From assembly GCF_009938015.1 (NCBI RefSeq), contig NZ_AP021884.1, positions 2,504,585-2,544,584 on the forward strand: a stretch of 40,000 nucleotides of DNA, given 5' to 3'. The notes below the pieces were generated by a model, which ran no database searches, was not told the origin of the DNA, and saw only the letters and a list, made by a program, of their open reading frames with translations. Shown here in pieces: positions 19,056 to 38,766 of this stretch. The stretch comes from Sulfuriferula plumbiphila. Lineage in GTDB: Bacteria > Pseudomonadota > Gammaproteobacteria > Burkholderiales > Sulfuriferulaceae. Every line of letters starts with the position of its first letter. Position 1 is the first letter of the stretch. The translations under genes and the position numbers were made by a program.

Positions 19056-19093
19056 TATATTGCAGCACCCCTCCTGTTAAAATCCTTTATCCG

Positions 19094-20341
19094 ATGTCTG
19101 ATACCTTTGTCTGTTGCCCATTCTGTGGCTTGCTTTGCGATGATCTGACTATCGCCCTTAACAAGGGTCAGGCACAGATCGAAAGTGCGGGCTGTGCCCG
19201 CGCTGTCAAACTGTTTGTTGTTCCCAGGCAGAGTCAGGCTCTGGTCGCCGGCCAGGCAGTCGACTTGGCCGCTGCCTATCGCGCTGCGGCCGCCATCCTC
19301 ACGCGTTCGCAGCACCCTTTGATGGGCGGCCTGGCCTGCGATGTCACAGGCCATCGCGCAGCCTTGGCTCTGGCGGAGAAAGTTGGCGGCGTAGTCGACC
19401 ACATGAATGGGCAGGCTCAGTTCCGCAACTGGCTGCCCTTCCAGGACGGCGGCTGGATGACCACCACACTGTCCGAAGTGCGCAACCGGGCTGATCTGAT
19501 CGTGTTAGCCGGCACCGATACCTCCCGTTTTCCCCGTTTTTTCGAGCGTTGCCTGACACCCGAGTCCCAGTTTGGCGAGCTGCATCGGCAGATCATCGCT
19601 TTGGGAACCAATCTTCCCTTGATCCCGGGACGCCCCACCGATACAGACCTCGCCATTCCCATTCAGAATGAGCGCCTGGGTGAGTTGTTCGCGGCTTTGC
19701 GCGCTCGCTTAGCTGGACACCGGCTAGACGCTCCCGATATTGCCGGCGTACCGCTGGCGCAAATCGATGCCCTGTTGGTTGCCCTGCATGCCGCCCGCTA
19801 TGGTGTGCTGGTATGGAATGCGGCAGAGCTGGATTTTCCCAACGCCGACCTGGCCATCCAGGCCATGGTGAATCTGATCAAGGACCTCAACCGCACTACC
19901 CGCTGGTCCGGCCTGCCCTTAGGCGGCAACGACGGGGACACTTCCGCCGCCCAGGTCTGCACCTGGCAGGCGGGCTATCCCCTGCGCACCACGTTCGAGG
20001 CCAGTGGCCCCCATTACGAACCCATGCTCTACGCGACGGATGCCCTCCTGGAAAGCGGCGATGTGGATGCCCTGGTTTGGATATCCGCCTTCGACCCTGA
20101 ACGCACCCCTCCAACCGCAAATTGCCCCACCATCGTCTTGGGACGCCCCGACATGATCTTCACCCGCCCACCGGATGTCTTTATTCCGGTCGCGGTACCG
20201 GGCGTGCAACACACCGGCTTCCTGCACCGCATGGACGCGGTGGTGGCCCTGCCTCTGAGCGCGCCGGCCCCTGCCGACCTGCCCAGCGTAGCCCAGGCCC
20301 TGGTGGCCATCCAACAGAAATTGAACCATGCTGCGGCTTAA
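19094..20341 (+). CDS. fhcB: formyltransferase/hydrolase complex subunit B (formylmethanofuran dehydrogenase subunit B homologue)
   Basis: The internal ATG at 19094 gives MSDTFVCCPFCGLLCDDL, a typical FwdB/FhcB N-terminal Cys motif. The product is 415 aa. The upstream part of the listed ORF covers the AT-rich promoter region. Confidence 0.85.
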   Translation: MSDTFVCCPFCGLLCDDLTIALNKGQAQIESAGCARAVKLFVVPRQSQALVAGQAVDLAAAYRAAAAILTRSQHPLMGGLACDVTGHRAALALAEKVGGVVDHMNGQAQFRNWLPFQDGGWMTTTLSEVRNRADLIVLAGTDTSRFPRFFERCLTPESQFGELHRQIIALGTNLPLIPGRPTDTDLAIPIQNERLGELFAALRARLAGHRLDAPDIAGVPLAQIDALLVALHAARYGVLVWNAAELDFPNADLAIQAMVNLIKDLNRTTRWSGLPLGGNDGDTSAAQVCTWQAGYPLRTTFEASGPHYEPMLYATDALLESGDVDALVWISAFDPERTPPTANCPTIVLGRPDMIFTRPPDVFIPVAVPGVQHTGFLHRMDAVVALPLSAPAPADLPSVAQALVAIQQKLNHAAA

Positions 20342-21992: not shown

Positions 21993-22885
21993 TCCATAAC
22001 GGCGTCCTCATCGACGACACCTATGCCGAGGCCTTCGGCATGAAGGCCACCCGCATCATCATCACGGCGGACAACCTCACCTGGGCGAAAAACGCCGCCA
22101 ACGCCGCCTTCGGCTTCGCCACCTCGGTCATCGCCTGCGGTTGCGAGGCGGGCATCGAGCGGGAACTCGCGCCGGACGAGACACCGGATGGCCGACCCGG
22201 TGTGGCCGGCCTGCTGTTCGCGATGTCAACAAAAGAACTCGCCAAGCAGTTGGAGCGCCGTATTGGCCAAGGCGTGCTCACCTGCCCCAGTACCGCCGTG
22301 TTCGCCGGCTGCGACAGTGAGGAAAAACTTCCCCTGGGCAAGAACCTGCGCTATTTCGGGGACGGCTGGCAAATATCCAAGGTCATCGCCGGTCGCCGCT
22401 ACTGGCGCATCCCGGTGATGGACGGGGAATTCCTGGCCGAGGAAAGCACAGGCCTGCTGCGTTCCGTGGGCGGCGGCAACTTCTTGGTGCTGGCGCGTTC
22501 ACGTTGTCAGGCACTAAGCGCGTGCGAAGCGGCTGTGCTGGCCATCGCCAAGGTACCGGGTGTCATCACGCCCTTCCCCGGTGGCGTGGTTCGCTCCGGC
22601 TCAAAAATAGGTTCCAAGTACAAGGCTTTGCCCGCCTCCACCAACGATGCCTTCTGTCCCACCCTGCGTGGCGTCACGGAATCCGAACTGTCACCAGAGG
22701 TGGAGGCTGTGCTGGAAATCGTCATCGACGGGTTGTCCGATGCCGATATGCACGCCGCCATGAAAGCGGGCCTGGAGGCAATTTGCGAGATTGGCGCGGC
22801 GGGTGGCATCGTGCGCCTGTCCGCTGGCAACTATGGCGGCAAATTGGGGCAATTCCACTATCGTCTGCGGGAGATACTGGCATGA
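21989..22885 (+). CDS. fhcD: formylmethanofuran:tetrahydromethanopterin formyltransferase
   Basis: The ATG at 21989 sits in an ATGA overlap with fhcA. MIHNGVLIDDTYAEAFGMKATRIIITA is a typical Ftr/FhcD N-terminus. The product is 298 aa. Confidence 0.88.
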   Translation: MIHNGVLIDDTYAEAFGMKATRIIITADNLTWAKNAANAAFGFATSVIACGCEAGIERELAPDETPDGRPGVAGLLFAMSTKELAKQLERRIGQGVLTCPSTAVFAGCDSEEKLPLGKNLRYFGDGWQISKVIAGRRYWRIPVMDGEFLAEESTGLLRSVGGGNFLVLARSRCQALSACEAAVLAIAKVPGVITPFPGGVVRSGSKIGSKYKALPASTNDAFCPTLRGVTESELSPEVEAVLEIVIDGLSDADMHAAMKAGLEAICEIGAAGGIVRLSAGNYGGKLGQFHYRLREILA

Positions 22886-23688
22886 GCGCCCTGACCCTGA
22901 CCTTGCGTGCGGCGCCTCAAGGCCGGGTGGATATGAGCGGCGTTTTGCCGGCGGCCCTGGCAGGGCTTTCCGTCGCCGCGATCGCCGCCCTGCCTTTGAT
23001 CATGAATGGCCGACCGGTGGCTTTGGGCGAGCTGTTCGATGTGGCACCAGGAGAGGCGAACCGACTCGTGATCTGCACCGCCACCAATTGCCTGGATTAC
23101 CTGGGCAAGGGCATGACCGCCGGGACGATTACCGTGGAAGGTCCGGCCGGTCATTACACCGGCCAGAACCTGTGTGGCGGTAAACTCGTTGTCCGTGGCC
23201 ATGCCGGTCAATTCGCCGCCAGCGGCATGAAGGGGGGCCTGCTGCACATCGTCGGCAACGCTGGCGACTGGCTCGGTGCCGCGCTGATTGGCGACCGGGC
23301 CGGCATGGCCGGTGGCGTGGTAGCGGTGGAAGGCGATGTAGGTGACCGCGCCGGTGACAGGATGCGACGCGGTTTGATCCTGGTCCGTGGCCGCGCCGGT
23401 GACGCCTGCGCGACGCGGCTTCTGGCCGGCACCTTGGTTGTAGCCGGAGGGTGCGGCGACCAGCCCGGTTTCGGCCTGCGCCGTGGCAGCCTGATCCTCG
23501 GCCACGCCCCGGCTACCCTGCCGACGACATTCAACCACGCCGGCGTTGTGGATCTGCCCTATCTGGACCTGTTGCGTCGCCACGCCGCGGGCATCCTGCC
23601 CGGCGTGGTTCCCGCCCTGTCGCGCGTGCGTCGCTATGTGGGCGACCTGACTTGCGGCGGCAAGGGAGAAATCCTGGTGGCAACATGA
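22882..23688 (+). CDS. fhcC: formyltransferase/hydrolase complex subunit C (FwdC homologue, beta-helix G-rich repeats)
   Basis: The ATG at 22882 sits in an ATGA overlap. Repeated GxxGxxxG(A)xMxGGxxxVxGxAG segments (VVRGHAGQFAASGMKGGLLHIVGNAGDWLG ...) resemble FwdC/GltB-C-terminal-type repeats. Confidence 0.85.
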   Translation: MSALTLTLRAAPQGRVDMSGVLPAALAGLSVAAIAALPLIMNGRPVALGELFDVAPGEANRLVICTATNCLDYLGKGMTAGTITVEGPAGHYTGQNLCGGKLVVRGHAGQFAASGMKGGLLHIVGNAGDWLGAALIGDRAGMAGGVVAVEGDVGDRAGDRMRRGLILVRGRAGDACATRLLAGTLVVAGGCGDQPGFGLRRGSLILGHAPATLPTTFNHAGVVDLPYLDLLRRHAAGILPGVVPALSRVRRYVGDLTCGGKGEILVAT

Positions 23689-24224
23689 AGTTGATTTTTC
23701 TACGCCACGGCGAATCCGAATACAACCTGCTCGGCCGCTGCAACGCCGACCCGGTCGTGGCGGTACCCCTGACACCGCTCGGCCGCCGCCAGGCCGAGGC
23801 GGCGGCCGGGCGGCTGCGTGACCTGCCGATTCGGCGAATGTACGTCTCGCGTTTGCAACGCGCCCAGGAAACAGCAGCCATCGTCAATGCGAGCCACGGT
23901 GCCCGTATCCACGTGGATACCCGCCTGGACGACCGCAATACTGGCTTCGAAGGCCTACAGGTAAAGGATTATCTGCGCGCCATGCGTGGCGCGCCCGACC
24001 CTTACGGCTGGAAGGCGCCGACGGGCGAGTCCTATCGGGAAATGGTGGCGCGGGCGCATGCCTTTCTGGAGGACCTTTCCCGGCTGGATGAACCAGCGGT
24101 ACTGGTGGTGACGCATCACGAAGTGCTGCAGGCCGTGGCGGGACACTTCCAGGGTCTGAGTCTAACGCAGATGTGGCAGGTATGGGTTGGCAACGGCGAA
24201 ATTCTGGAATTTGGATCGGGCTGA
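23685..24224 (+). CDS. histidine phosphatase family protein (phosphoglycerate-mutase-like)
   Basis: MKLIFLRHGESEYN carries the RHG catalytic motif, and there is a downstream VVTHHEVL. It has an ATGA overlap with fhcC. The product is 179 aa. Confidence 0.8.
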   Translation: MKLIFLRHGESEYNLLGRCNADPVVAVPLTPLGRRQAEAAAGRLRDLPIRRMYVSRLQRAQETAAIVNASHGARIHVDTRLDDRNTGFEGLQVKDYLRAMRGAPDPYGWKAPTGESYREMVARAHAFLEDLSRLDEPAVLVVTHHEVLQAVAGHFQGLSLTQMWQVWVGNGEILEFGSG

Positions 24225-25049: not shown

Positions 25050-25217
25050 GTTTCCCGCCATAACGTACGAGTATCGCAAAGCGTAACCGAATCCACCCTT
25101 TCCTGTTTAATGTTTAACCTGATGTTCGCTTCCCTAGCCCATGCGGCCGAGGTCGAGGTAGAAAACGCCTGGATCCGTGCCCCTGAGTATTGCTCTTTTT
25201 TCTCAAGGCCGCTCTTA

Positions 25218-25970
25218 ATGATGATATGGCTTCTCTTGGTTTCCCTTGGCGCCGGCATTCTGATTGGCGCCGTTGGTATCGGAGGAATCCTTCTGATTCC
25301 CGCACTCAACGTTCTAGGGGGGCTAACAATCCACCAGGCAATGGCAACCGCCTTATTTACCTTTATTTTTACCGGTGCCATAGGCACCTTTTCGTTTCAG
25401 CGCCGCGGAAGTATCGACTGGAGCATTACTGCGCCGCTGTGCCTTGGCGCAGCAATTTTTGGATTTCTGGGCGCTTGGGCGAATGCGAAAATCGATGCGT
25501 ACATACTTTCCCTAATCCTGTCGTCAATTATCATTTTTGCCGGCATTTACACTATTTCCACTCACAGCCTGGCAAGACCGGCCATTCTCCAAGGCCGGCC
25601 GGGGCTGCAGCAGGCCTTCTTGGTTGGCATAGGTGCCGTTGTGGGTTTCGGCTCAGGCCTGACTGGGGTGGGGGGTCCTGCTTTATCTGTTCCCATGATG
25701 ATTTTGTTTGGGTTCTCCCCACTGACCACAATAGGCGCAAGCCAGGTAATTCAGATCCTCGCCGGAATCTCGGGAACGGCAGGGAATATGCAGTACGGCT
25801 CAATCAATTTCAATCTCGTAACCATCTTAACTATTTTCGAGGTCATAGGGGTCCAAATCGGCGTGCGGATCGTACACGCCGTGAACGCTCAATCTCTGCG
25901 CCGCTACGTAGGCGTACTGTGCATTCTTGTTGGCGCGGGACTCATGATGCGTGCATTAGGACTCTTTTAG
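25218..25970 (+). CDS. TauE/SafE-family (sulfite exporter-like) membrane protein
   Basis: The protein is polytopic and hydrophobic with two GxGGGxxxxP-type motifs (GAVGIGGILLIPAL, TGVGGPALSVPMMI). I placed the start at the ATG at 25218 (MMIWLLLV). The listed upstream 36 codons look like an unrelated gene remnant. Confidence 0.75.
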   Translation: MMIWLLLVSLGAGILIGAVGIGGILLIPALNVLGGLTIHQAMATALFTFIFTGAIGTFSFQRRGSIDWSITAPLCLGAAIFGFLGAWANAKIDAYILSLILSSIIIFAGIYTISTHSLARPAILQGRPGLQQAFLVGIGAVVGFGSGLTGVGGPALSVPMMILFGFSPLTTIGASQVIQILAGISGTAGNMQYGSINFNLVTILTIFEVIGVQIGVRIVHAVNAQSLRRYVGVLCILVGAGLMMRALGLF

Positions 25971-26490: not shown

Positions 26491-26961
26491 TCACAAATCT
26501 GATCGCTCTTTTGCACCGTTAGGTCGGCAATACCAGCTGAAGCCATGCTTCTCGAAGCCAAGCGATTCATAGAATTTATGCGCCCCTTCTCGTTTCAGAT
26601 GGCTCGATAAGGCGAGCTTGTAACAGCCTCTTTTTTTACAGCACGCCATCGCGAACCGCATCATCTTTTTTCCGATTCCTTTTCCTTGCCAATCGTCGGA
26701 AACGACAACATCTTCGACAATTCCAAAAGGCTTGCCGCCGTGCGCCAGGCTATCGATTATGATCAACGCGAAAGTACCGGCAATTACTCCGGCAGATTCA
26801 GCAATATAGACACGATAATCAGGATATTCCCGGTAGAGCAAAAATCGCAGCCGCGCTTTATCCAATGAAAGTTTTTTTGCAGGTCCGAATTCGAGCAGCA
26901 TATAAAGCTCAAGCAGCCGAGGCAGATCGGACAATACCGCTTCTCTAATGACGATTTTCAT
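26491..26961 (-). CDS. GNAT-family N-acetyltransferase
   Basis: The product is 156 aa. The acetyl-CoA loop WQGKGIGKKMM (Q/R-x-x-G-x-G/A) and a C-terminal YESLGF are present. Confidence 0.85.
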   Translation of the reverse strand: MKIVIREAVLSDLPRLLELYMLLEFGPAKKLSLDKARLRFLLYREYPDYRVYIAESAGVIAGTFALIIIDSLAHGGKPFGIVEDVVVSDDWQGKGIGKKMMRFAMACCKKRGCYKLALSSHLKREGAHKFYESLGFEKHGFSWYCRPNGAKERSDL

Positions 26962-27215: not shown

Positions 27216-28076
27216 TTAAATCTCAAGCTTAAGCACCCGTTTTGCATTCTGATAGAGCACCTGGTCCAGAACTTCCTCTCTGAAGCCCAGCTCCCTGTAG
27301 TCCTCCAGTGATTGCCCCATTGCACGGAAAGGATATGAACTGCCGAACATCAGCTGGTCCTTCATGAAACCGTTTGCGGCCTCGACATAAAGGTTTCCGC
27401 CCGGAAGGAAGATGTACATGTCGGGTACGAGGTAAACGTTCTCATAGCGGAAGGCGACCCCTATTATTTCATTCACATACGGATAAAATCCGTGGTAGCA
27501 AACGATCGACAGATTTGGGAATGCGCGTGCAATCCGGCCCACTGGGGCGGGGTCGGTCAGTTCGAGACTGGGGGATGTCGGCCCCGACATGATGCAAACA
27601 GGAACGCCCAGCTGGTCACAGGCGTCGTAGATCGGATACAGCAGCGGATCGTCGGCCTTCATGGGAGTGCTGGCAAACCCGGGTTCCAGATTAATGCCCT
27701 TCAGCCCCAGTGTCTTGATAGCCCGCTCTACTTCGGTAGCCGAACCATTAATGCCCACTGAGCCAATACCAACGAGCTCCTTGTGTCCTCCGGTTATTTC
27801 ACTGATCTGATCGTTGGAATGTCTGATCCCTGGAGTGTCGCGGCCCACCACCACGGCTGCCGTTATACCGGTTTCACGGATCTCCTCCACAAATCCCGCA
27901 ACGGTCTTCGACCGGGTAAAGTGCTCATCATCTTTTGAGCCCACCCGCCGGTTTAGCCATTTAACAACCTCATATTCCTTCGTACCAGGCGTTGCGCCAT
28001 AAAAATCGTGCAGGAATGAAGGCCTGCTGCGCATATCTATTACTTTTTTTACTTTTCCTATTACTTTCTTTACCAT
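27216..28076 (-). CDS. amidohydrolase_2-family (ACMSD/LigW-like TIM-barrel) protein
   Basis: The C-terminal signatures LMFGSSYPF and LYQNAKRVL and an internal CYHGF fit the family. The ATG at 28076 has GGGAGA 7 nt upstream. The N-terminal metal motif is atypical (IDMRSRP). Confidence 0.72.
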   Translation of the reverse strand: MVKKVIGKVKKVIDMRSRPSFLHDFYGATPGTKEYEVVKWLNRRVGSKDDEHFTRSKTVAGFVEEIRETGITAAVVVGRDTPGIRHSNDQISEITGGHKELVGIGSVGINGSATEVERAIKTLGLKGINLEPGFASTPMKADDPLLYPIYDACDQLGVPVCIMSGPTSPSLELTDPAPVGRIARAFPNLSIVCYHGFYPYVNEIIGVAFRYENVYLVPDMYIFLPGGNLYVEAANGFMKDQLMFGSSYPFRAMGQSLEDYRELGFREEVLDQVLYQNAKRVLKLEI

Positions 28077-28406
28077 TTCCAAATCTCCCTATCTTAAAAA
28101 ATCCGGTTCAGTGTCATAACCAGTGTCAACTTGCTTCAATGGCAACGCGCGAGGCGCGATGTCTCTTACCTACTTCTACCCAACTTTTCTGGAAAAAATT
28201 ACTCAATGGCTGCTTAGTACTTAATACCTGTTTAATGCTGGCATGCAGGCTCCTCGTTCCTGCTGCGCTAATTGACGGAAACGTATTACCTCCCAATCAA
28301 TTGGAGTCGACATGACAACCGCAGCTCCCGTCAAGTCCAGGGCTTTGCGTTGACGCCACAGATTGGCGACATTAATCTGGTGGCGCATCTCTTCCCGGTC
28401 GTCTTG

Positions 28407-28647: not shown

Positions 28648-29562
28648 TTAACTACCCGGGCCAGTCTTGTCCGCGCGTCTTGAATAGGCTTCAACGAAAT
28701 CAGTTGCTGCCTTACTTCCGCCCGCAAACGATTTCATCGCTTCCTCGTGCAGCAGGGACAAGGCTTCCGTCTTCACTTCATTCGCACGCTTACTGTCAAA
28801 CACGAAAGCCAACCGTCTCGGCCGGGGCAAGTCGACTTCAATCGTAGCCCGGACCTGTCCGGGAATATTGGTCATGATCAGCAAGCGGTCAGCCAGGAAG
28901 ATCGCCTCATCAATATCCGTCGTAACAAAGAAATTGGTTCTCCGCGACTCCTCGTAGAGTCCTGCGTAATATTCCCACATCAACTCCTTGGACATACAAT
29001 CCAGGCCACGAAATGGTTCATCAAGAATCATGACTTCGGGGTCATTGATCATTGCACGGGCTAGTTCAGCACGGCGCTGCATGCCGCCAGAGAGCTGCGG
29101 CGGATATTTATTCCGGAACGCTGTTAAACCCACCTTTTCAAGCAGAAATTTGGCCAGGTCACGGGCTTGTTGCGTATCCTCGCCGCGCGCTCTGGGTCCA
29201 TACATTATGTTGTCATAGGTTGTCATCCACGGAAACAAGGCAGATTCCTGGAACACAACCAGGCGATCTCGATCAGGGCCGGTTATTGGCTTTCCATTTA
29301 TTTTAATACTGCCGGTCGTAGGCTTTTCAAACCCGGCCAGAAGTCGTATCAACGTACTTTTACCGCAGCCCGATGGGCCAATCATCACGGTAAGTTTGTT
29401 GCGCTCGATGGTAAATGAGCAGTCCTTGACTACTTCCTTCGTAAACAGCCCAGCACCATATGACTTGCTGACATTGCTTACCGTGATTTCACCGGCACTG
29501 ACCTGCGGCCTCAGGCTAGCCGATGAATCAGACAGATCATGGGAGATATTTGTCATATTCAT
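28648..29562 (-). CDS. ABC transporter ATP-binding protein (NitT/TauT-type importer)
   Basis: It has Walker A GPSGCGKST, the signature LSGGMQRR and Walker B VMILDEPF. The second ATG at 29556 has better SD spacing (AAGGA plus 7 nt). Confidence 0.9.
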   Translation of the reverse strand: MNMTNISHDLSDSSASLRPQVSAGEITVSNVSKSYGAGLFTKEVVKDCSFTIERNKLTVMIGPSGCGKSTLIRLLAGFEKPTTGSIKINGKPITGPDRDRLVVFQESALFPWMTTYDNIMYGPRARGEDTQQARDLAKFLLEKVGLTAFRNKYPPQLSGGMQRRAELARAMINDPEVMILDEPFRGLDCMSKELMWEYYAGLYEESRRTNFFVTTDIDEAIFLADRLLIMTNIPGQVRATIEVDLPRPRRLAFVFDSKRANEVKTEALSLLHEEAMKSFAGGSKAATDFVEAYSRRADKTGPGS

Positions 29563-29567: not shown

Positions 29568-30392
29568 TTATCGTTTCTTCAACCAGGGTGTGACGAAGCC
29601 GCCGAGCGCACGCAAGGTCGCGCTACAAAGATAACCAGCAACGCCGATGCTGATCATGCCCACAACAATCTGTGCGTAGGAACCGCCCACATAGGAGTTC
29701 CAGATAAAAAAGCCGAGCCCACCGCCTGATCCGCCCGCCTGGCTGCCGCCACCCGAAATCATTTCCGCTGCGACCACCACCTCCCAGGTAATCCCCATGC
29801 CTACTGCAGCTCCGACGACAATCGAAGGTAGTGTTGCGGGAAAAACGACACGGCGGAAAATATCCCACTGCGAGGCTCCCATTGCTTGAGCCGATTGAAA
29901 ATACCGGATGTCGATCGATTTTGCGCCACCCAGCACATTGATCACGACAGTAAAAAACGCACCGAGAAAGGTAACAAAGGTGATGGACAATTCCTGCGTC
30001 GGCCAAAAGATGATCGATGCGGGGACCCAAGCCAGCGGCGGGATCGGACGCAATAGCTCAAAGGACGGGAAGGCCAGACTTCTAAACGTTTTGCTTACTG
30101 CCATGAGCAGGCCGAAGGGAATACCAATCAACATGGCAACAAGGAATCCCGTCAAAACCCGGATCAGGCTCATATACCAGCTTTGCCAATATCCCGAATC
30201 GCCAACCAGTCCGATCCATGCTTTGAGTACAGCGGTTGGAGCGGGCACCTGACCAATCCATGGCAGAGCAAAGCCTAGCCACTGCTTGGACTGCGAGCCC
30301 GCTTCCCATAGCACCAGAAACGCGACAATGCCGACAATTCCGCGCAGGGTAGAGCGGCTAAATAGTGTTTTTTTAAATCTGTTGAGGTTCAT
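29568..30392 (-). CDS. ABC transporter permease (BPD_transp_1, NitT/TauT-type)
   Basis: The product is a 274-aa polytopic protein. The EAA-like loop region reads QSAQAMGASQWDIFRRVVFPATLP. Confidence 0.85.
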   Translation of the reverse strand: MNLNRFKKTLFSRSTLRGIVGIVAFLVLWEAGSQSKQWLGFALPWIGQVPAPTAVLKAWIGLVGDSGYWQSWYMSLIRVLTGFLVAMLIGIPFGLLMAVSKTFRSLAFPSFELLRPIPPLAWVPASIIFWPTQELSITFVTFLGAFFTVVINVLGGAKSIDIRYFQSAQAMGASQWDIFRRVVFPATLPSIVVGAAVGMGITWEVVVAAEMISGGGSQAGGSGGGLGFFIWNSYVGGSYAQIVVGMISIGVAGYLCSATLRALGGFVTPWLKKR

Positions 30393-30398: not shown

Positions 30399-31262
30399 CT
30401 ACCCTTCTTTTTCGCCTGCTGCAAAAGACTTCTTGGCTTCTTCATGCACGAGCTCTATGACTTCATCCATCAGTTCGCGATACCGTGCGCTGGTCAGTAC
30501 GCTGTAATCGCGTGGATGAGGGATGTCGATGTCAAGAATCTTCTTTGGCTTGCAAGGCCGCGAAGACATGATGACTACTCGGTGGCCGAGAAAAATCGCT
30601 TCTTCCAAATCGTGGGTGATAAAGAAAATGGTGACCTTGTTCTTGTAGTAAATTTCCAGCAATGCCTCATGCATTACCGACTTGGTAAGCGAGTCGAGTG
30701 CGCGGTAAGGCTCATCGAACAACAGCACCTTGGGGTCGTTCATCAATGCCCGGACAATTTCCACCCGGCGGCGCAAACCGGAGGAAACTTCGCCCGGATA
30801 ATTGTTTTCGGTGCCACCCAGTCCGGCATCAGCCATCATGTTGCGGGCTTTTTCATAGATTTCTTTTTTGCTCATCTTGCCTTGCATCAGAGGGCCGAAA
30901 GCAATGTTTTCCAGGTTGGTTTTCCACGGGAACAGTGCGCCGTTCTGAAACACCACAATGCGGTCTGAGCCCGGCTCTGCCATGGGTTTATCCGGGCCAC
31001 ACAAGAGCTTGTCATCGAGGTAAATCTTGCCGGATGTAATACTGTGAAACCCGGCAATCGCATTCAACAAAGTGGTTTTCCCGCAACCGGATGGCCCTAC
31101 AATCATGCAGATTTCTCCTGCCGAGATATCCAGCGAACAATGATCCACCGCCATCACTGCGGCGCCTTCCGGGTCATAGATTTTGACGACATCCTCGATC
31201 CGGATTGCGCCCTGCGATATGGCTTTTTCCGACTTTGCGCTTGTTTCCAGTACATAGCTCAT
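30399..31262 (-). CDS. ABC transporter ATP-binding protein (second, distinct NBD)
   Basis: It has Walker A GPSGCGKTT, the signature VSSGLRRR and Walker B LLFDEPY. The ATG at 31262 overlaps the upstream stop by 1 nt (TGATG). Confidence 0.9.
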   Translation of the reverse strand: MSYVLETSAKSEKAISQGAIRIEDVVKIYDPEGAAVMAVDHCSLDISAGEICMIVGPSGCGKTTLLNAIAGFHSITSGKIYLDDKLLCGPDKPMAEPGSDRIVVFQNGALFPWKTNLENIAFGPLMQGKMSKKEIYEKARNMMADAGLGGTENNYPGEVSSGLRRRVEIVRALMNDPKVLLFDEPYRALDSLTKSVMHEALLEIYYKNKVTIFFITHDLEEAIFLGHRVVIMSSRPCKPKKILDIDIPHPRDYSVLTSARYRELMDEVIELVHEEAKKSFAAGEKEG

Positions 31263-32599
31263 CAACGGCCTCCCAAGGCAAGTTCACGTACCCGCCACTG
31301 CATCATGTAATCACCGATCATGCGCACCAGGGCGCTGGTGGAATAGCCAACCGCGCCAAGGGTGATCATGCCGATCACGATCGTCGGATAGCGAACCATC
31401 GTATAGGATGTATTGATCAGATAGCCAAGCCCGAACTGGCCGGAAACCATTTCTCCCGCCACCAGTGAAAACCAGGCGACACCGACGGATATTTGCAGGC
31501 CGGTAAAAATGAACGGCATGGCGCCCGGCACAATCACTTCCCTGAAGGATTGCCACCGACTCGCACCCAGGCATGAGGCCGCCCGAATATAGGACTCGTC
31601 GATAGAATCGACGCCGAGCATGGTATTCAGGGCGGTGGCGAAAAAAGAAGCGAGAAAAGTAAGAAAAATGACCGGGGTTTCGGAGCCGCTGAACATCAAG
31701 ATTGCCAATGGCACCCACGCGAGAACAGGGATGGGACGCAGGGTTTCAAAAAGAGGAAAGATGTATTCGCGAAACTTCTTGGACCAGCCCAAAAACAATC
31801 CGAGCGGCACACCTAAAAGTGTTGCCAGGAAAAACGCAATCCCCACACGGCGAACGCTGATCCAGATGTCATGGTAATACTCGGGGGTATAAAGCGACAC
31901 ACCATAGACTGGATTTTTACTGAAAAGCTCTTTTACAACCACGGTCAGTCCAGGCATATCTTCGAAGCGGGGCAATTTCCAGACCTCGACAGCGAAGTAC
32001 CAAAAGCCCAATAGAATCGCGAATCCGGTGATCATCAGATAAGGATCAGGGCTCTTCACCCACTGCGACACGCGAAACAGCGTCAAGGTCAAGCCGGTTG
32101 CCATGGTAGCTTGCAGCTGGGGCAGAGTCTGCTCTCCGGGGGGAAAATGACGCACCTGCGTAGCCACTGCTTCCGGCAGGGTAAATTCCTTGTTGATCAT
32201 GGTGGCAAAGCGGCTCATGACAACATCGCCAATAGAAGGGGACGCCTTGAAAAGATTGATCAGATCCTCGCCGTTAATCCGGATAAGCTCAGTCCGTTCC
32301 AGGCAGACGGTTTTCGCCAAACGTTTGCGCTGGCCTTCGAGCACGGCTGCCCATCCGAACACGCCGCCGCTGTATACGGTTTTATCCGGATGGATCGCAT
32401 GAGCGTCTATTCCGAGAGTGTGCTGCACGCTGCCTGAGGACACAACGTATATATCTTCAGCCTTATCACCTATTTGATAAAGTACATCGCCCCGCGCGTG
32501 TGACTCCCACTTAGCAAGCCCGGCGATAGCCAGGAGCATACTGTCCGGCACCATCTGGAACGGCATTGTGCGTTTCAACAAGGCTATGAGTTGTTCCAT
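31262..32599 (-). CDS. fusion protein: N-terminal cyclic-nucleotide-binding-like (CAP effector) domain plus ABC transporter permease
   Basis: The start at 32599 has GGAGGA 4 nt upstream. Residues about 1-135 show a cNMP-domain pattern (ARGDVLYQIGDKAEDIYVVSSGSV ... GGVFGWAAVLEGQRKRLAKTVCLERTELIRINGEDL). The C-terminal ~290 aa form a NitT/TauT-type permease (RAASCLGASRWQSFREVIVPGAMP). Confidence 0.8.
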   Translation of the reverse strand: MEQLIALLKRTMPFQMVPDSMLLAIAGLAKWESHARGDVLYQIGDKAEDIYVVSSGSVQHTLGIDAHAIHPDKTVYSGGVFGWAAVLEGQRKRLAKTVCLERTELIRINGEDLINLFKASPSIGDVVMSRFATMINKEFTLPEAVATQVRHFPPGEQTLPQLQATMATGLTLTLFRVSQWVKSPDPYLMITGFAILLGFWYFAVEVWKLPRFEDMPGLTVVVKELFSKNPVYGVSLYTPEYYHDIWISVRRVGIAFFLATLLGVPLGLFLGWSKKFREYIFPLFETLRPIPVLAWVPLAILMFSGSETPVIFLTFLASFFATALNTMLGVDSIDESYIRAASCLGASRWQSFREVIVPGAMPFIFTGLQISVGVAWFSLVAGEMVSGQFGLGYLINTSYTMVRYPTIVIGMITLGAVGYSTSALVRMIGDYMMQWRVRELALGGR

Positions 32600-32627
32600 T
32601 AATCCTCCGTGTGGCATATTTTTGGAT

Positions 32628-33743
32628 TCATTTAGGGGCTTTGGAAACGTCTTGTGCCTGGATGCTCCCCAGAGGTAAGCGAACACCGGCGTCCTTGGCA
32701 ATCTTGCGTGCGACCGAGTCATCCAGCACACCCGCAGGTGCCTGATCCACGTTGATTATTTTGTTCTTGTAAAGAAACTGGTAGATGCCGACGAGTTGAT
32801 TACGAATACGGTCGTCGAAGACAAACGGCTTTTCGTCCTTGATCGGACTGCCACCAGCGTATGCGGGTATCCTGCCGTATTCGGAGAACCAGGCCATCGG
32901 GACGGTAATCCCGTTGGTCTGCCCTTTGACGATCTCGGCAACCTTGACCCAGTTTTTCGGGTTCAGCACGAAGCGCTGCGCTTCCAGTTCGGTCTTCAAC
33001 CAGTCTTCGACGATATCCGGCCGCTGCTTCATGAAATCTTCGCGCATCGCGATAAAGCCGGAATCGGGCATGCCGAACGTATTCCCGGTGACTGCGTATT
33101 TCGCGATTCCCTCGCCAACCAGGTTGCCGATTCTCGATGCCGTGGGTTCCCAGAGCACAACGGCATCGAGTTTCTTCGCGCGCATGTTGGTGCTAAGAAC
33201 CTCGAGCGACTGGTTCATGATCGCCGCCGGCTTGATTTTTGATTTCTCTATAACGTAGCCCAGAAAGCGATCCGCGCAACTGCCTTTCGGTGTTGCAATG
33301 GTCTTGCCATTCAGCCACTTGACGGCTTCTTCGGGGGATTTGAAGTTCGGTGCGTCGGCGCGCACCATAATCACATTGCAACGCTGTCCCGGAGAAAATC
33401 CGGTGTTGGCCACCAGCTTGATTTTGGCCACATCCTGCTTGGTCGTTGCCACTACCGCAGGCATGTCGCCGAGATAACCAATTTGTTGCTTACCCGCGAG
33501 CATTTGATTGACGATGATCGAACCTTGCAGACCACCCTGGAATTGGACCTCGCTACCGGGGGGCAAATATTTCTTCCACAGTCCCAATGCGCGGATTACC
33601 GCTGCCGAGTACGAAACAGTGTCGTAGGGCTGGTAACCGACAGTCAGCTTCACTGGTTCGGCCGCGCGCACTGCAGTCAGCTGGACAACATTGAAAATTA
33701 TCAGTGCTAACGCAAGCATGGCGGTTTTAGCGTGTGATTTCAT
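32628..33743 (-). CDS. periplasmic substrate-binding protein (NMT1/THI5-like, NitT/TauT family), copy 1
   Basis: The ATG at 33743 has AAGGAG upstream. The signal peptide is MKSHAKTAMLALALIIFNVVQLTAVRA. The motif MLAGKQQIGYLGDMPAVVATTK is shared with copy 2. Confidence 0.85.
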   Translation of the reverse strand: MKSHAKTAMLALALIIFNVVQLTAVRAAEPVKLTVGYQPYDTVSYSAAVIRALGLWKKYLPPGSEVQFQGGLQGSIIVNQMLAGKQQIGYLGDMPAVVATTKQDVAKIKLVANTGFSPGQRCNVIMVRADAPNFKSPEEAVKWLNGKTIATPKGSCADRFLGYVIEKSKIKPAAIMNQSLEVLSTNMRAKKLDAVVLWEPTASRIGNLVGEGIAKYAVTGNTFGMPDSGFIAMREDFMKQRPDIVEDWLKTELEAQRFVLNPKNWVKVAEIVKGQTNGITVPMAWFSEYGRIPAYAGGSPIKDEKPFVFDDRIRNQLVGIYQFLYKNKIINVDQAPAGVLDDSVARKIAKDAGVRLPLGSIQAQDVSKAPK

Positions 33744-33865
33744 TACAGCTCCTTGATTATTATTATTAACTCGGCCATCAAATCTGGCGTGCATTTCGCC
33801 CTCAAACCCGCATGAATAAAGGGCTAGCTTAAGCGATTTGATGGTCGGCTCTATAGATATGTGAG

Positions 33866-35014
33866 CTACTTGCCTTTGTAGTCGGTTTCAGGCAACGCCT
33901 TAATCACGCCAACCGGGGATGTGAGTCCGCGCTCCTTCAATATTGCCTGGGTAAACTCCGGCATGACAGCGTCCGGCCGCAGCTTGTCCACATCGATACT
34001 CTTGATGGAGTGAAGAAACTTGGTCGCCCTCGTGATCAGGTCCGAAGCTTCCGGAGTGATTGTATAAGGCAGCACTAGCCGTACTGGCGTACCACCCTGA
34101 GCATCCGGAATCCTGCCGTACAGGGCACTCCACAGCTCCTTCTCTTTAAATCCGGTGGTTTGCGCCAACACCATGCGGATTACTGCATCGGCATTCTTCG
34201 GGTCCGCCATGTATTGCTCTGCATCCAGCTCTGCATTGAGCCACGCCTTGACCACATCCGGGCGCTGTTTGATGAGGTCGGCGCGCATCACCAGGAACGC
34301 GCCGTCGTGTTCATTCACCGCATTGCCGGACGCAATACGCTTGGCGAGACCTTCTGCCACCAGACGCGACGCGGTTGGCTCCCAGATGACCGCAGCATCG
34401 ATCTTGCCGACCCGAAAACCGCTGGTAATGACTTCAATGTTTTGATTCAGATAAGCCGAAGGCTTAACACCCATTTTCTCGAACACGGCTTGCGCGAAAC
34501 GGTCTGCGCAGGCGCCCTTGGGCACCGCCACCTGTTTTCCGTTCAGCCAATTGATGGCCTCTTTCTGATTGGCAAACTTCGGGGCGTCGGTTCTTGCGAG
34601 AAAGTTGTTGCATTGATCAACGCCCAAACCCACTGTCGCAACGATGCGCAAATCCGCGACATTCTCTTTGGTGGTAGAGACGATAGCCGGCATGTCTCCC
34701 ATGTAACCGATTTGCTGTTTGCCGGCGAGCATTGCATTGACGATAATGGCACCCTGCAAGCCGACCGCGAACTCCACGGTTGATCCCTTGGGCAAGTATT
34801 TTTCATAAAACTTCATGGGCCGCATCACCACACCGGACCAGGACTCCGTATAGTAAGGCTGGTAACCCACCACCAAATGGACTGGACTCCCCACCTTGCC
34901 GTAATCCAGTTCACCCGCGAACGCGGAAGACACGCTGCCCCCCGCGGTAAAGCCAAAAATCGTGGCCAAGACTACTAACGTGACACGTACCCATCGATTA
35001 ATAAAGCATGCCAT
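33866..35014 (-). CDS. periplasmic substrate-binding protein (NMT1/THI5-like, NitT/TauT family), copy 2 (paralogue)
   Basis: AGGAGGAG lies 6 nt upstream of the ATG. The signal peptide ends SSAFA. By eye roughly half of the residues are identical to copy 1 (VGYQPY, MLAGKQQIGYMGDMPA, WLNGK, PKGACADRF, WEPTASR). Confidence 0.85.
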   Translation of the reverse strand: MACFINRWVRVTLVVLATIFGFTAGGSVSSAFAGELDYGKVGSPVHLVVGYQPYYTESWSGVVMRPMKFYEKYLPKGSTVEFAVGLQGAIIVNAMLAGKQQIGYMGDMPAIVSTTKENVADLRIVATVGLGVDQCNNFLARTDAPKFANQKEAINWLNGKQVAVPKGACADRFAQAVFEKMGVKPSAYLNQNIEVITSGFRVGKIDAAVIWEPTASRLVAEGLAKRIASGNAVNEHDGAFLVMRADLIKQRPDVVKAWLNAELDAEQYMADPKNADAVIRMVLAQTTGFKEKELWSALYGRIPDAQGGTPVRLVLPYTITPEASDLITRATKFLHSIKSIDVDKLRPDAVMPEFTQAILKERGLTSPVGVIKALPETDYKGK

Positions 35015-35152: not shown

Positions 35153-35878
35153 CTATTTTTCCCCCGGGGAGCCCAGATGCCGGGTGATCAGGGTCGAAAG
35201 CTTGCGCATGACGAGATACCCGGAAGCCGGATCAGATTCGAGGACTTTCAGGGTTTCCTCGCCGTTCAGTCGCAGCAGAGCCGACTTTTCCAGGCAGGTA
35301 GCTTTGGCAATGCGGCGGGGTTGATGCTCGAGCAGCGCCGCCCAGCCGAACACCTCGCCTTTGCGCAGAACAAAACCGGCGGGGCTGGTACCATCGCGGC
35401 CAATGAGAAATTCGACGCGGCCAGATTCAAGAATATAGAGATCGTCAGTCGGATCACCGATGTTGTAGAGGGTGCTGCCGCTTTCGTATTCTTCGCGACA
35501 TGCGAGCTGATCAAGCCTTTGCAGCGTATCGTCAGAAATGTCCATAAACAACTGCGCCGCTTTCAGCGCGCTGGATTGCAGCACGAATATCTCACCATCC
35601 TCGACCTTGACTTCGTATTTTTCCAGAGGGGCTTCGGCGAGACCAAGCGCTTTCCCGGTAGTAATATCCCACTGCCATAAATGCTGGTGACAGGTGAGCA
35701 CCGCGCCATCATAATATCCTTCGGCCAGACAGACTTCCTGGTGGGGGCAAATGCCTTGATAAGCGTAATAGCAGTCTCCGGCGTTGGCGATCAGGACTTT
35801 CAGCCCACCTTCAATGTCATAGTCCTTCATCCCGTTGGTAGGAATTTCGGCCGAATTGCATATGCGTATCTTGCTCAT
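35153..35878 (-). CDS. fusion protein: Rieske [2Fe-2S] ferredoxin plus C-terminal cyclic-nucleotide-binding-like (CAP effector) domain
   Basis: The Rieske motif is C44-P-H46 ... C63-H-Q-H66 (CxH-x16-CxxH) within about 100 aa, the size of a ferredoxin. Residues about 105-235 show the cNMP-domain pattern (SGSTLYNIGDPTDDLYILESGRV ... GEVFGWAALLEHQPRRIAKATCLEKSALLRLNGEETL). Confidence 0.8.
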   Translation of the reverse strand: MSKIRICNSAEIPTNGMKDYDIEGGLKVLIANAGDCYYAYQGICPHQEVCLAEGYYDGAVLTCHQHLWQWDITTGKALGLAEAPLEKYEVKVEDGEIFVLQSSALKAAQLFMDISDDTLQRLDQLACREEYESGSTLYNIGDPTDDLYILESGRVEFLIGRDGTSPAGFVLRKGEVFGWAALLEHQPRRIAKATCLEKSALLRLNGEETLKVLESDPASGYLVMRKLSTLITRHLGSPGEK

Positions 35879-35887: not shown

Positions 35888-36925
35888 CTAACTGAATTTG
35901 TCATAGCAAATATTATCGGTGGTCAATCTCGCCTGTAGCAGTATGCGGACGGCAGCATCCACCATCGGTGGTGGGCCGGCGAGATAGGCCCTGACGTTTT
36001 GATAGCGGTCTTGCATATGACGTCCCGCTACCTCGTGCACAAAACCCTTGTCAAACGCCAGTTGCGGATAGTCAGCCAGGGCGGAGGCGGGTGCATCCTC
36101 TCTTGACAGGGCGATGGTTATATTCAGTTTGTCGCCGCACTGGGCGCGTAACTGGGAGAATTCATGGAGAAAAAAGGCGTCCTTCATTGTTTGCACCCCG
36201 AAGAACACATCACCCTTATATTGAGTGAAATAGCCGTCCTGCGCAGCCCGCGACAGAATGGACATCATTCCGGCGATGCCGCTGCCACCGGCGATACAAA
36301 GAATGTTTTTGGCCAGGCTCGGATAAAAAGTCGCGCGCCCCAAAGGACCGAATAGTTCAACTTCCACGCCCTCGCACTGGTTATTGAACAGCCATTCGGA
36401 AATACCTCCTCCGGGCTTTTTCTTGACAACAAAGTTGAGCGTTTCCGCATGACGCTGATAATTCACCATGGACCAGCCGCGAAAGCCTGCCACTCCGGGC
36501 ACCTGGATCATCACAAACTGGCCGGCGTCAAACTCCATCGCCTGGTTCAGGTCGATCTGGAGATGAATCACATCAGGAGTCAAAAGCTTTACAGAGCTTA
36601 TACGCCCGTTTATTGAGGCAGGCACACAGGCACCTGCACCCATGGTCTGGACAAAGCTTGACACTTCAATTGAGACGTCAGTTTTAGCTGTACACTGACA
36701 CATCAGAAACTCGTCCTGACCTTTCAGATACTTGCGCCCTGGAGCCTCGGGCCAGGGATCAGAAATCTCCCCTGAGATCAACCGGGCTTTACATGTTCCA
36801 CACGTTCCACTACCACATTCATAAGGCAGGTCGACAGCGCTACTCAACCCGGCATAGAGTATTTTTTTGCCATCAGCAGCATCAAAATGATGTGCCCGGT
36901 TTCTGGCGTTGAGCTGGATTTTCAT
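35888..36925 (-). CDS. oxygenase reductase component: plant-type [2Fe-2S] ferredoxin domain plus FAD/NAD(P)-binding FNR-like domains
   Basis: The N-terminal motif is CGSGTCGTCKARL ... C. There follow an FNR-like RxWS-type FAD region (FRGWSMVN) and the NAD loop CIAGGSGIAGM. The product is 345 aa. Confidence 0.88.
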   Translation of the reverse strand: MKIQLNARNRAHHFDAADGKKILYAGLSSAVDLPYECGSGTCGTCKARLISGEISDPWPEAPGRKYLKGQDEFLMCQCTAKTDVSIEVSSFVQTMGAGACVPASINGRISSVKLLTPDVIHLQIDLNQAMEFDAGQFVMIQVPGVAGFRGWSMVNYQRHAETLNFVVKKKPGGGISEWLFNNQCEGVEVELFGPLGRATFYPSLAKNILCIAGGSGIAGMMSILSRAAQDGYFTQYKGDVFFGVQTMKDAFFLHEFSQLRAQCGDKLNITIALSREDAPASALADYPQLAFDKGFVHEVAGRHMQDRYQNVRAYLAGPPPMVDAAVRILLQARLTTDNICYDKFS

Positions 36926-36949: not shown

Positions 36950-37411
36950 TCAGAATGGAATGTGAGAGCCGAAACCGAACAGCCGCGTATCAAGGCGGAT
37001 ATTGCGATCCAGCAATTTCGGGCCGCCGTCCCCAAGTGCGATAGTGTCGTAAACTTTACCCACCACAAACAGCTCGGTTGCACCGCCGTCAAGCGATGTC
37101 TTGAAGACCTGCAGCGCGCTGATCACTTTGGCTTGTTGCCTGGCTTCGTCGTGGTCAACTATATACACCGTGGCGTGACGGCTGAGCGGCGAATGGTCGC
37201 TGTTGTGCTTGGGTAGATTATCGAATAACGTCTTCATCCCCGCCTTGTCATGCTCAAGCCAGGTCATTTCTTTGCGGATTTCCGGACTGTAGGCGGTAAT
37301 GGCATAGTGAAACGCCGGATCGCACAATTCCAGGTAACCCGCAAAGTCCTTGGCGTCCAATGCAAGGCAAGATCGGTAAATTAGCTCATTGATAGATTGT
37401 TTGGGTTCCAC
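36950..37411 (-). CDS. aromatic-ring-hydroxylating oxygenase beta (small) subunit, NTF2-like
   Basis: The product is 153 aa with a typical N-terminal helix (INELIYRSCLALDAKDFAGYLELC) and lies directly downstream of the alpha subunit. The GTG start has AGAGGA 5 nt upstream. Confidence 0.85.
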   Translation of the reverse strand: MEPKQSINELIYRSCLALDAKDFAGYLELCDPAFHYAITAYSPEIRKEMTWLEHDKAGMKTLFDNLPKHNSDHSPLSRHATVYIVDHDEARQQAKVISALQVFKTSLDGGATELFVVGKVYDTIALGDGGPKLLDRNIRLDTRLFGFGSHIPF

Positions 37412-37459: not shown

Positions 37460-38668
37460 TCACGCCGCAGCGGAGTCCTCTTTTTTAACATAGGGATCGG
37501 ATGCCATGCGCCCCATGCGCTTGCTCCACTCGGCGTAAAAATGCCGCATTCCAATCTCATCGTGTATCGTCGAATTTTCTTCACGACCATGAATAACCCA
37601 TTTGCTGTCGGTACGCTCACGCATGGCCAGTCCCTGCCCATGCACCGCCAATAGATCTTCATGCAGGTTGCGACCGAACGGCCCCCATATCTGGTTGTGA
37701 TCGCGGATCCGCTCGGCGCGCTGCTCGGGCGTGTCGCTCTTCAGCCCCAGCCCGCGGAACTCGATAAGCAGTTTGTTCGGTCCCAAAGGAATGGCCGTGT
37801 CCATACGCAACACCGAGGTGCGCAGGTTGTAAGTCATGCCGGGGAAAATATCGATCAGTATCCAGCCACCTGGCGCCAACCCCGGCCAACCCACACCGCG
37901 CTCCTTGCTGCCTTCGTAAGCATCGTATTTGATCGCCATTGAACCCACTGACGCGTGACCATTCGGATAACCTGTGTACTTGCGATCAAAGTAGCCTGGT
38001 TGGATCATGCCAGTGATGCGGTTGAAGTAGTGTACGTAGTCATGATAGAACTCGCTGTTGGTGTCATGCCACAGCTTGTAATTGGTGTTGACGATCGCCT
38101 TGTGATAATGGATGACCTCCAAAGGCATGCTGAGATTCTCGTCCAGCATCCCCATCGCATCGCCTATGTATTCCTCCAGCGTGCAGCTATCATCATCCAC
38201 ATTTACCCAGACGAAGCCGCCGTAGCCGATTGCGCTTTTGACTTCGCGCAGACCAGCGTCCTTGCAGCCGAAGCGTTCTTGATAGCCTTCCTTGCCGCGG
38301 GTAATATCTATGCAATCCCCTTTGGGATTAAATGACCAGGCATGAAAAATACAGGTGATGCGTTTGGCGTTGCCGACGGGATCGTAGAGGAGCGTGTTGC
38401 CGCGGTGCGGACAGATGTTGTAGAAGCTGCGCACTTTCATGTCTTCGCCGCGAATAACGAAGATTGGCTCGCCACCCGGATGGCTGAAAGTCCGGTAATC
38501 GTAGGCGTTCGGCAGTTCCGATTCGTGACAGGCGATAATCCAGCACTTATTAAAAATCTTTTCCTGTTCCTCCCGGAAAATCTGTTCGTCGGTATAAATC
38601 CCGGTATCTACAAAATGAGTAGGAGGAAATTTTGGTCTTTCTTTCCATTCAATTTCAGTGCGCGACAT
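37460..38668 (-). CDS. Rieske non-haem-iron oxygenase alpha (large) subunit
   Basis: The start at 38668 has AAGGAG 8 nt upstream. The Rieske motif is CPHRG-x16-CIFHAW. The catalytic-domain His-rich segment is NSEFYHDYVHYF. The product is 402 aa. Confidence 0.9.
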   Translation of the reverse strand: MSRTEIEWKERPKFPPTHFVDTGIYTDEQIFREEQEKIFNKCWIIACHESELPNAYDYRTFSHPGGEPIFVIRGEDMKVRSFYNICPHRGNTLLYDPVGNAKRITCIFHAWSFNPKGDCIDITRGKEGYQERFGCKDAGLREVKSAIGYGGFVWVNVDDDSCTLEEYIGDAMGMLDENLSMPLEVIHYHKAIVNTNYKLWHDTNSEFYHDYVHYFNRITGMIQPGYFDRKYTGYPNGHASVGSMAIKYDAYEGSKERGVGWPGLAPGGWILIDIFPGMTYNLRTSVLRMDTAIPLGPNKLLIEFRGLGLKSDTPEQRAERIRDHNQIWGPFGRNLHEDLLAVHGQGLAMRERTDSKWVIHGREENSTIHDEIGMRHFYAEWSKRMGRMASDPYVKKEDSAAA

Positions 38669-38750
38669 TCTTTGGCTCCTTGGATACGTTAAGGAAAAAA
38701 CATCATAGCTATCAATGAGAGACGAATAAGCGTCGTCTATGCAGGCATAA

Positions 38751-38766
38751 AGCATAGTCTGTGCCA
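38751..38766 (-). promoter_or_regulatory. candidate sigma-54 (-24/-12) promoter of the oxygenase/ABC operon
   Basis: The minus strand reads TGGCACAGACTATGCT. TGGCAC is perfect and the GG-N10-GC spacing is exact. The predicted TSS near 38740 lies about 70 nt upstream of the alpha-subunit ATG. Confidence 0.5.

Follow-up and report, generated by a model that had tools for sequence, protein, structure and literature searches.

Control of Rieske oxygenases is generally placed at the level of transcription and of substrate gating in the oxygenase itself, with the ferredoxin regarded as a passive shuttle. In the T4moC system, a separate effector protein competes for the docking site, and the ferredoxin itself carries no regulatory domain. 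MsmC, the ferredoxin of methanesulfonate monooxygenase (MSAMO), is said to resemble toluene-monooxygenase ferredoxins, a likeness attributed to De Marco et al. in 1999. Henriques and De Marco (PMC4433239) report that MSAMO activity needs all four of its components and that a Rieske spacer of the form CXH-x26-CXXH is diagnostic of genuine MsmA. Here, we describe a gene in a 40,000-nucleotide stretch of Sulfuriferula plumbiphila (contig NZ_AP021884.1, positions 2,504,585 to 2,544,584; hereafter the window) that encodes a 241-residue protein, FdCNB, in which a T4moC/MsmC-type Rieske ferredoxin (residues 1–100) is followed by a domain of the CAP/cyclic-nucleotide-binding (CNB) fold (residues 103–236). 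The gene lies in an operon of the order alpha-beta-reductase-FdCNB-binding protein-permease-ATPase.

A comparison with the described systems shows both what is shared and what is different. Like MsmC of Methylosulfonomonas methylovora M2 and Filomicrobium, FdCNB has a reductase-ferredoxin-alpha/beta setting, an msmEFGH-like importer and a T4moC-like fold (PMC4433239); however, MsmC is a 16-kDa stand-alone protein of ~125 residues, whereas FdCNB has an extra 140-residue sensor domain, the msm genes run A-B-C-D rather than alpha-beta-reductase-ferredoxin, and MsmC works with an x26 MsmA, while the alpha subunit beside FdCNB in the window has an x17 spacer. T4moC (PDB 1VM9, 4P1B/4P1C) is the best solved relative of the N-terminal domain and likewise has a plant-type ferredoxin/FNR reductase as its donor, but its partner is a diiron hydroxylase, while that of FdCNB would be a Rieske oxygenase. 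The effector domains of CRP/FNR proteins (NtcA; DNR, CooA, CprK) share the beta-roll and C-helix fold; unlike these proteins, FdCNB has no helix-turn-helix (HTH) output, would act on an electron-transfer protein instead and bears an FGW...R-I-A signature. Ligand-dependent, post-translational gating of importers of the NitT/TauT or Met type is familiar from the trans-inhibition of MetNI and ModBC and from the regulatory domain of cyanobacterial NrtC. Those regulatory domains sit on the ATPase and have other folds, whereas here a CNB domain is found at the permease N-terminus and duplicated on the ferredoxin.

The ATG start of FdCNB lies 9 nt beyond the stop codon of the reductase gene and is preceded, at a distance of 8 nt, by an AGGA ribosome-binding site; the protein is identical to a GenBank record of S. 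plumbiphila (TPL01_10760). An initial annotation, made from the sequence alone, had read it as a single frame joining a Rieske module with a CPH-x16-CHQH motif to a cNMP-type domain, in a three-component, class-III-like setting, and this layout was borne out: both Pfam domains exceed their thresholds within the 241-residue open reading frame (ORF), the motif occurs as C44-P-H46-x16-C63-H-Q-H66, and a ferredoxin-FNR reductase, alpha and beta subunits are encoded directly upstream. The Rieske family PF00355 matches residues 4–80 at 47.9 bits against a cut-off of 20.3, and the cNMP_binding family PF00027 matches residues 129–216 at 58.4 bits against 27.5, placing the C-terminal half in the cNMP fold and not in another; no NCBIfam model reaches its cut-off on the protein, although the NCBIfam matches, like those in Pfam, speak for a ferredoxin. 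T4moC was the best PDB sequence match of the N-terminal domain (E 2.7e-18), and a Foldseek search of the PDB superposed this domain on T4moC 1vm9 at 38% identity, with a root-mean-square deviation (rmsd) of 1.4 Å and a TM score of 0.85, and matched CarAc as well. The four cluster ligands C44, H46, C63 and H66, encoded at 35681–35749, are invariant in 16 diverse homologues.

An AF2 model built from 16 homologues (mean pLDDT 81.7) resolves the second domain into N-terminal helices, a beta-roll and a C-terminal helix (residues 217–236). Its closest fold matches in the PDB were GlxR, CRP, DNR and the CNB domains of CNG channels (Foldseek, E ~1e-9 to 1e-10, rmsd 2–3 Å over 135–140 columns). Since the last Rieske strand spans residues 96–100 and the first CNB helix residues 104–107 in the model, the interdomain linker would comprise only ~3 residues, and no internal start at the domain boundary is conserved among the 16 diverse homologues.

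The fusion recurs widely. With each GTDB species represented by a single genome, relatives of FdCNB were encoded in 183 species genomes, and 80 loci were retrieved for locus comparisons (loci are given L numbers below). The initial annotation had pointed to the domain junction as the place where a stop codon or frameshift might show up in independent data, and to domain-architecture databases as a source of further Rieske-CNB combinations. Residues 1–241 form a single, unbroken aligned segment in 80 independent assemblies (tblastn), and both Pfam domains occur together at 241–243 residues in at least 120 representatives of 90%-identity clusters, down to 66% identity. Isolates with the intact fusion include Thiobacillus thioparus DSM 505, T. 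denitrificans DSM 12475, Methyloversatilis universalis FAM5, Methylibium sp. Root1272 and Glaciimonas immobilis. The idea that two separate genes were joined through faulty assembly or annotation, by a lost stop or a frameshift, is refuted by this constancy of layout across assemblies, isolate genomes and protein clusters, and its probability is practically nil, even though one locus (L034) does display a false read-through of this kind between reductase and FdCNB. That 587-residue ORF (8963–10726, plus strand) was rejected as a genuine larger fusion; it arises from a shift of frame at the C-terminal end of the reductase, which is probably due to a sequencing error in this metagenome-assembled genome.

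Of 1.84 billion representatives clustered at 50% identity, no more than 19 reached E<=1e-30, and the full-length two-domain matches collapsed into very few clusters. The compactness of this one family of Rieske-CNB proteins points to a single fusion event, and no other independent Rieske-CNB family was found in the same set of representatives. Two candidates with two matching stretches, P0196 and P0237, were rejected as further CNB fusions, both being double-Rieske proteins, and the fused version was not found on the plasmids in PLSDB.

We then considered the role of FdCNB within its operon. Genes for alpha, beta and reductase are present in 61 of the 62 loci with enough upstream DNA, and a binding protein together with a CNB-bearing permease in 52 of the 57 with enough downstream DNA. 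No second Rieske ferredoxin is encoded in any of the 56 loci in which alpha has the x17 spacer; because MSAMO is reported to require all four components (PMC4433239), FdCNB is the obvious shuttle in these systems. From this context we infer that electrons reach the oxygenase from the reductase by way of FdCNB, and we hold it highly probable that it is the ferredoxin of an msm-like enzyme. An x26 alpha accompanies FdCNB in six gammaproteobacterial loci from Candidatus Thiodiazotropha and Arenicellales (L026, L029, L038, L040, L042, L048), and all six also encode a stand-alone, MsmC-like ferredoxin, its gene placed between those for beta and reductase; the copy in L038 is 42% identical to the Rieske domain of FdCNB. 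Since plain MsmC coexists with the fusion in these long-spacer operons, the fusion is not always the only shuttle, and FdCNB must have a role there beyond that of sole shuttle. In Rieske oxygenases, ferredoxins dock at the cluster-binding region, as in CarAa-CarAc complexes, and the spacer loop of alpha is located there; for this reason the coupling of spacer length to ferredoxin type may reflect partner specificity.

The coexistence with stand-alone MsmC in the x26 loci would also fit a different role, in which FdCNB is a redox sensor or brake whose cluster reports the state of the reductase pool (or of oxygen or reactive oxygen species), while its CNB domain signals to the importer, or in which it competes with the true ferredoxin. 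The position of its gene at the junction of the oxygenase and transporter genes agrees with such a role, as does a BenC-like reductase that could in principle serve alpha directly. However, the 56 x17 loci encode no other Rieske ferredoxin for an enzyme type that is reported to need one (PMC4433239), and conservation of the Rieske domain equals that of the catalytic components, with T4moC/CarAc-type shuttles as its nearest relatives; we therefore judge a sensor or brake of this kind very unlikely.

The oxygenase that FdCNB would serve appears, from its components, to belong to a system like methanesulfonate monooxygenase, complete with an ABC importer for sulfonates and resembling msmABCD/msmEFGH. 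Alpha, beta, a Rieske ferredoxin and a plant-type ferredoxin/FNR reductase are encoded next to the importer, the permease of which is TauC/SsuC-like. These msm-like components and the sulfonate importer led us to reject an aromatic ring dioxygenase as its identity. The alpha subunit in the window lacks the x26 spacer of genuine MsmA and has x17; proteins named 'MsmA' with an x17 spacer and of unproven function have been noted in Methylibium and Methyloversatilis (PMC4433239). The alpha of the window and the x26 alpha of L038 share 50% identity across 406 aligned residues, and the alignment opens a gap of 9 residues exactly in the spacer. Between x17 and x26 operons, reductase, FdCNB, binding protein and permease are 61–82% identical (65–75% is given for binding protein, reductase and FdCNB), compared with ~50% for alpha and ~35% for beta, so that one conserved reductase-FdCNB-importer module is found with either type of alpha/beta pair. 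Related loci add TauE, GcvT-like, FolD, formate-tetrahydrofolate ligase (FTHFS), SoeABC-like molybdoenzyme and formate dehydrogenase genes, which appear to be the equipment needed for handling formaldehyde and sulfite. The formaldehyde-oxidation cluster and the TauE/SafE gene of the window (Table 1) likewise speak for an MSAMO-like system. By this contextual assignment, the oxygenase in the window would convert methanesulfonate to formaldehyde and sulfite.

The second domain of FdCNB departs from a cyclic-nucleotide receptor precisely at the ligand site. In the canonical phosphate-binding cassette, F-G-E-x-A-L...R-[ST]-A, the Glu contacts the ribose 2'-OH, and the Arg and Ser/Thr contact the phosphate. 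Profile alignments (HMMER) place F-G-W179 of FdCNB on the F-G-E of the PKG and PKA cassettes, and in the family-profile alignment, which contains a one-residue insertion like that of CRP, the cassette Arg, Ser/Thr and Ala correspond to the invariant R189, to I190 and to A191, respectively. Both replacements, Glu by Trp179 and Ser/Thr by Ile190, are invariant, and only Arg189 and Ala191 are kept; the cassette helix (residues 179–182) is retained in the AF2 model. The cNMP-domain pattern of the initial annotation was right as to the CAP fold, on the evidence of Pfam and Foldseek, but two of the three cNMP-contact residues have been replaced. FdCNB also lacks the C-terminal HTH of a CRP/FNR transcription factor, no HTH family being matched in Pfam or NCBIfam and the protein ending 5 residues past the C-helix. 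Given the family-wide loss of the Glu and Ser/Thr, cAMP or cGMP is unlikely to be the ligand. A small oxyanion is favoured instead, as the Arg and helix-dipole site is kept while the ribose contact is lost; that it is specifically a sulfur oxyanion is possible, though in our estimate less likely than not.

The same sensor subtype recurs elsewhere in the pathway. The N-terminal part of the importer permease (~32168–32599) bears FGWAAVLEGQRKRLA and is 38% identical to the CNB domain of FdCNB (E 1e-27). In a comparison of 81 CNB domains from ferredoxins with 41 from permeases, the pattern G-x-V-F-G-W-A-A-x-L...R-x-A...E is conserved at 90% or more in both families, and the cassette is the best-conserved stretch that the two have in common. 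Within the 150 best-matching representatives, the pattern FGWAAL....R[IL]A is shared by FdCNB, permease fusions and stand-alone proteins of ~150 residues, whereas the canonical multi-CNB proteins carry FGE...PR[ST]A. The stand-alone form of this GW-type domain adjoins TauE in 15 of the 80 loci, with no copy in the window; its family comprises 579 matches at E<=1e-5, in which Y, G-W and R-x-A are invariant. In four of four further contexts sampled, the stand-alone gene lies in an operon of HisKA, sigma54-regulator, PanB-like, CNB, TauE and GcvT genes beside msm-like genes, also with FolD or FTHFS and near SoeABC-like or formate-dehydrogenase genes. No CNB-TauE fusions were found among the representatives; besides stand-alone proteins and fusions to the permease, these included only a single 4HB_MCP protein. 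The GW-type CNB thus appears, from its gene neighbourhoods, to be a pathway-specific module on uptake and electron supply and, in many genomes, near a sulfite-export gene.

Two side observations concern these families. The permease of L057 (12022–13944, plus strand) is a 640-residue protein with two tandem GW-type CNB domains. In JGI, the name 'toluene monooxygenase system ferredoxin subunit' is given both to the fusion and to Rieske-less stand-alone CNB proteins, which looks like a carry-over from the fused family.

Two other functions of the CNB domains have to be weighed against this distribution. They might be genuine cAMP or cGMP receptors, through which a global second messenger would switch ferredoxin and importer in a form of protein-level catabolite control. 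Pfam cNMP_binding scores well above threshold, the CNB domains of PKG and PKA are the best sequence matches, and the cassette Arg and Gly residues are kept. Yet in all three GW-type families, Trp invariably takes the place of the cassette Glu, and Ile or Leu that of the Ser/Thr, the subtype is confined to the msm-like pathway neighbourhood in every context sampled, and no cyclase domain was found among the called genes of L081 and L083–L086, the window and the 80 loci not having been systematically screened for one. Taken together, this makes a second-messenger receptor quite unlikely.

Alternatively, the domains could be mainly protein-protein pairing modules, the permease CNB pairing with that of FdCNB through the C-helix and so tethering shuttle and oxygenase to the importer as a metabolon, with a ligand being optional. 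CRP-type domains do dimerise through this helix (PMC6243067), the domains are present in matching number, one per permease pair and one per ferredoxin, the C-helix positions P217, G220, M224 and I231 are conserved in both families, and the tandem arrangement in L057 suggests a tendency to pair. The strongest shared conservation, however, is in the ligand cassette and not in the C-helix, and the two partners occur apart, FdCNB without an adjacent transporter in L034 and L078, and permeases without a CNB domain in L026 and L073. Tethering as the function of the domains is accordingly improbable in our assessment.

We propose instead that FdCNB is the MsmC-equivalent Rieske ferredoxin of an msm-like enzyme, with a rigidly attached, C-terminal GW-type sensor of a small ligand, and that it is gated by this ligand together with import; on this reading as a whole we are evenly divided. 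Electrons would pass from NADH through the ferredoxin-FNR reductase and FdCNB to the alpha/beta oxygenase. A common ligand would occupy the CNB cassette of FdCNB, and the very short linker would relay the ligand state to the Rieske domain, altering its docking or electron transfer with the reductase or the oxygenase. That FdCNB is a ligand-gated electron shuttle in this sense is a tentative proposal, to which we give slightly less than even credence; the role suggested in the initial annotation, that ligand occupancy gates the shuttle and thereby limits uncoupling, is plausible. The identical ligand would act on the permease CNB, so that uptake, oxidation and, in relatives, sulfite export would be switched together after translation, which would limit wasted NADH, reactive oxygen and the build-up of toxic sulfite and formaldehyde. 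The occurrence of the same sensor subtype on the permease and beside the sulfite-exporter gene argues for control that is pathway-wide and not specific to the shuttle.

In this scheme, the ligand would be an oxyanion of the pathway, and not cAMP or cGMP: either sulfite, the toxic product, giving feedback, or alternatively methanesulfonate, the substrate, giving feed-forward control or trans-inhibition. There is a precedent in NtcA, in which a CRP-type pocket has been rebuilt for the anionic metabolite 2-oxoglutarate (PMC6243067). The most specific form of the proposal, in which the GW-type CNB senses sulfite or methanesulfonate and, being present on the ferredoxin, on the permease and beside the exporter, forms a purely post-translational circuit with the first ligand-gated Rieske shuttle, is speculative, and we think it possible but rather unlikely.

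Several observations weigh against this proposal. All proven methanesulfonate growers have the x26 spacer, and the substrate of x17 alpha subunits is unproven (PMC4433239). In M. universalis FAM5, the 'methanesulfonate' module was not expressed during growth on methanol or methylamine (PMC5023235). The x26 operons have a plain MsmC next to FdCNB and so can dispense with FdCNB as sole shuttle. A route that bypasses the ferredoxin is conceivable, given the likeness of the reductase to BenC, which belongs to two-component systems. Finally, the interdomain geometry of FdCNB is uncertain in the AF2 model (pTM 0.60).

The remaining features of the window, together with those of related loci to which we refer, are collected in Table 1. 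The window encodes two binding proteins; most related loci have one, and two are found in L058 and L073. A sigma54-type element upstream of alpha overlaps the first ATG of the alpha ORF, and alpha therefore probably starts at M30. Matches to the sigma54 consensus are at chance level across the window (61 against 57.8 expected), and the alpha-proximal site is the only one with support from its position, a similar element lying ~70 nt upstream in Thiobacillus loci. Farther from the operon is a cluster for methanofuran/tetrahydromethanopterin (H4MPT) biosynthesis and formaldehyde oxidation, in which two long ORFs (10510–12132 and 22858–23775) have no Pfam match.

Table 1. Coordinates of features in the window and, where a locus is named, in related loci.
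Feature	Position	Strand	Remarks
FdCNB: Rieske ferredoxin + CAP/CNB-fold domain, 241 aa	35153..35878	minus	ORF, Pfam, homologues, AF2, Foldseek
Rieske [2Fe-2S] ferredoxin domain, residues 1-100	35579..35878	minus	Pfam, T4moC match
CNB/CAP-effector-fold domain, residues 103-236	35171..35572	minus	Pfam, AF2, Foldseek
Non-canonical phosphate-binding cassette, G174-E-V-F-G-W179-A-A-L-L-E-H-Q-P-R-R189-I-A191	35306..35359	minus	Alignments
ABC permease (BPD_transp_1) with N-terminal CNB	31262..32617	minus	Pfam; ORF to 32731, start probably ATG 32617
Oxygenase alpha, CPH-x17-CIFH Rieske motif	37460..38755	minus	Real start probably M30 at 38668
Oxygenase beta subunit	36950..37411	minus	Domain search
Reductase: plant-type [2Fe-2S] + FAD + NAD, MsmD/BenC/MmoC-like	35888..36925	minus	
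SsuA-family periplasmic sulfonate-binding protein 1	33866..35014	minus	
SsuA-family binding protein 2	32628..33794	minus	46% identical to binding protein 1
ABC ATPase	30399-31265	minus	
Second permease	29568-30392	minus	
Second ATPase	28648-29562	minus	
Amidohydro_2	27216-28082	minus	After transporter genes, kept in many related loci
GNAT	26491-26961	minus	After transporter genes, kept in many related loci
TauE/SafE sulfite-exporter family gene	25110..25970	plus	Near operon
Sigma54-like -24/-12 element TGGCACagactATGC	38752..38766	minus	Upstream of alpha; one mismatch
Sigma54 activator gene	55-1224		
Methanofuran/H4MPT biosynthesis + formaldehyde-oxidation cluster	1362-24300		
MfnB-like	4035-4730		H4MPT-cluster member
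Decarboxylase	4742-6103		H4MPT-cluster member
Mtd-like	16875-17777		H4MPT-cluster member
Fhc/Ftr	18893-22885		H4MPT-cluster members
x26 alpha, L038	6307-7680		
Stand-alone MsmC-like ferredoxin with acidic tail, L038	8427-8804		
Stand-alone GW-type CNB, L056	19920-20384	minus	~154 aa, beside TauE
Stand-alone GW-type CNB, L010	~5250-5705	plus	~154 aa, beside TauE
Stand-alone GW-type CNB, L081	9001-9501		Beside TauE
Stand-alone GW-type CNB, L083	9001-9504		Beside TauE
Stand-alone GW-type CNB, L085	8001-8465		Beside TauE
Stand-alone GW-type CNB, L086	8001-8468		Beside TauE

The proteins themselves are already in databases, under generic names. What is new here is an MSAMO-like three-component Rieske monooxygenase of which both the shuttle and the importer carry a non-canonical CAP-fold sensor. 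Neither the joining of a CNB domain to a Rieske ferredoxin nor a CNB-bearing sulfonate permease nor a GW-type CNB was described in the literature searched, outside of which lay most subscription journals, and this agrees with the initial annotation, which knew of no regulatory domain on a Rieske shuttle.

If the proposal is true, electron flow and uncoupling in Rieske oxygenases would be open to control at a new point, by a sensor that the shuttle bears and that has a paralogue on the importer, and its ligand would be of a new class for the CAP/CNB fold. For biocatalysis, FdCNB would also provide a model from nature for redox partners that can be switched. Cultured carriers such as T. thioparus DSM 505 and M. 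universalis FAM5 make the system directly testable. The short-spacer, MsmA-like system is widespread and uncharacterised in sulfur-oxidising and methylotrophic Beta- and Gammaproteobacteria; the species genomes that encode FdCNB relatives include Thiobacillus, Methyloversatilis, Methylibium and Thiodiazotropha symbionts, a distribution that bears on which organisms may consume methanesulfonate in the sulfur cycle.

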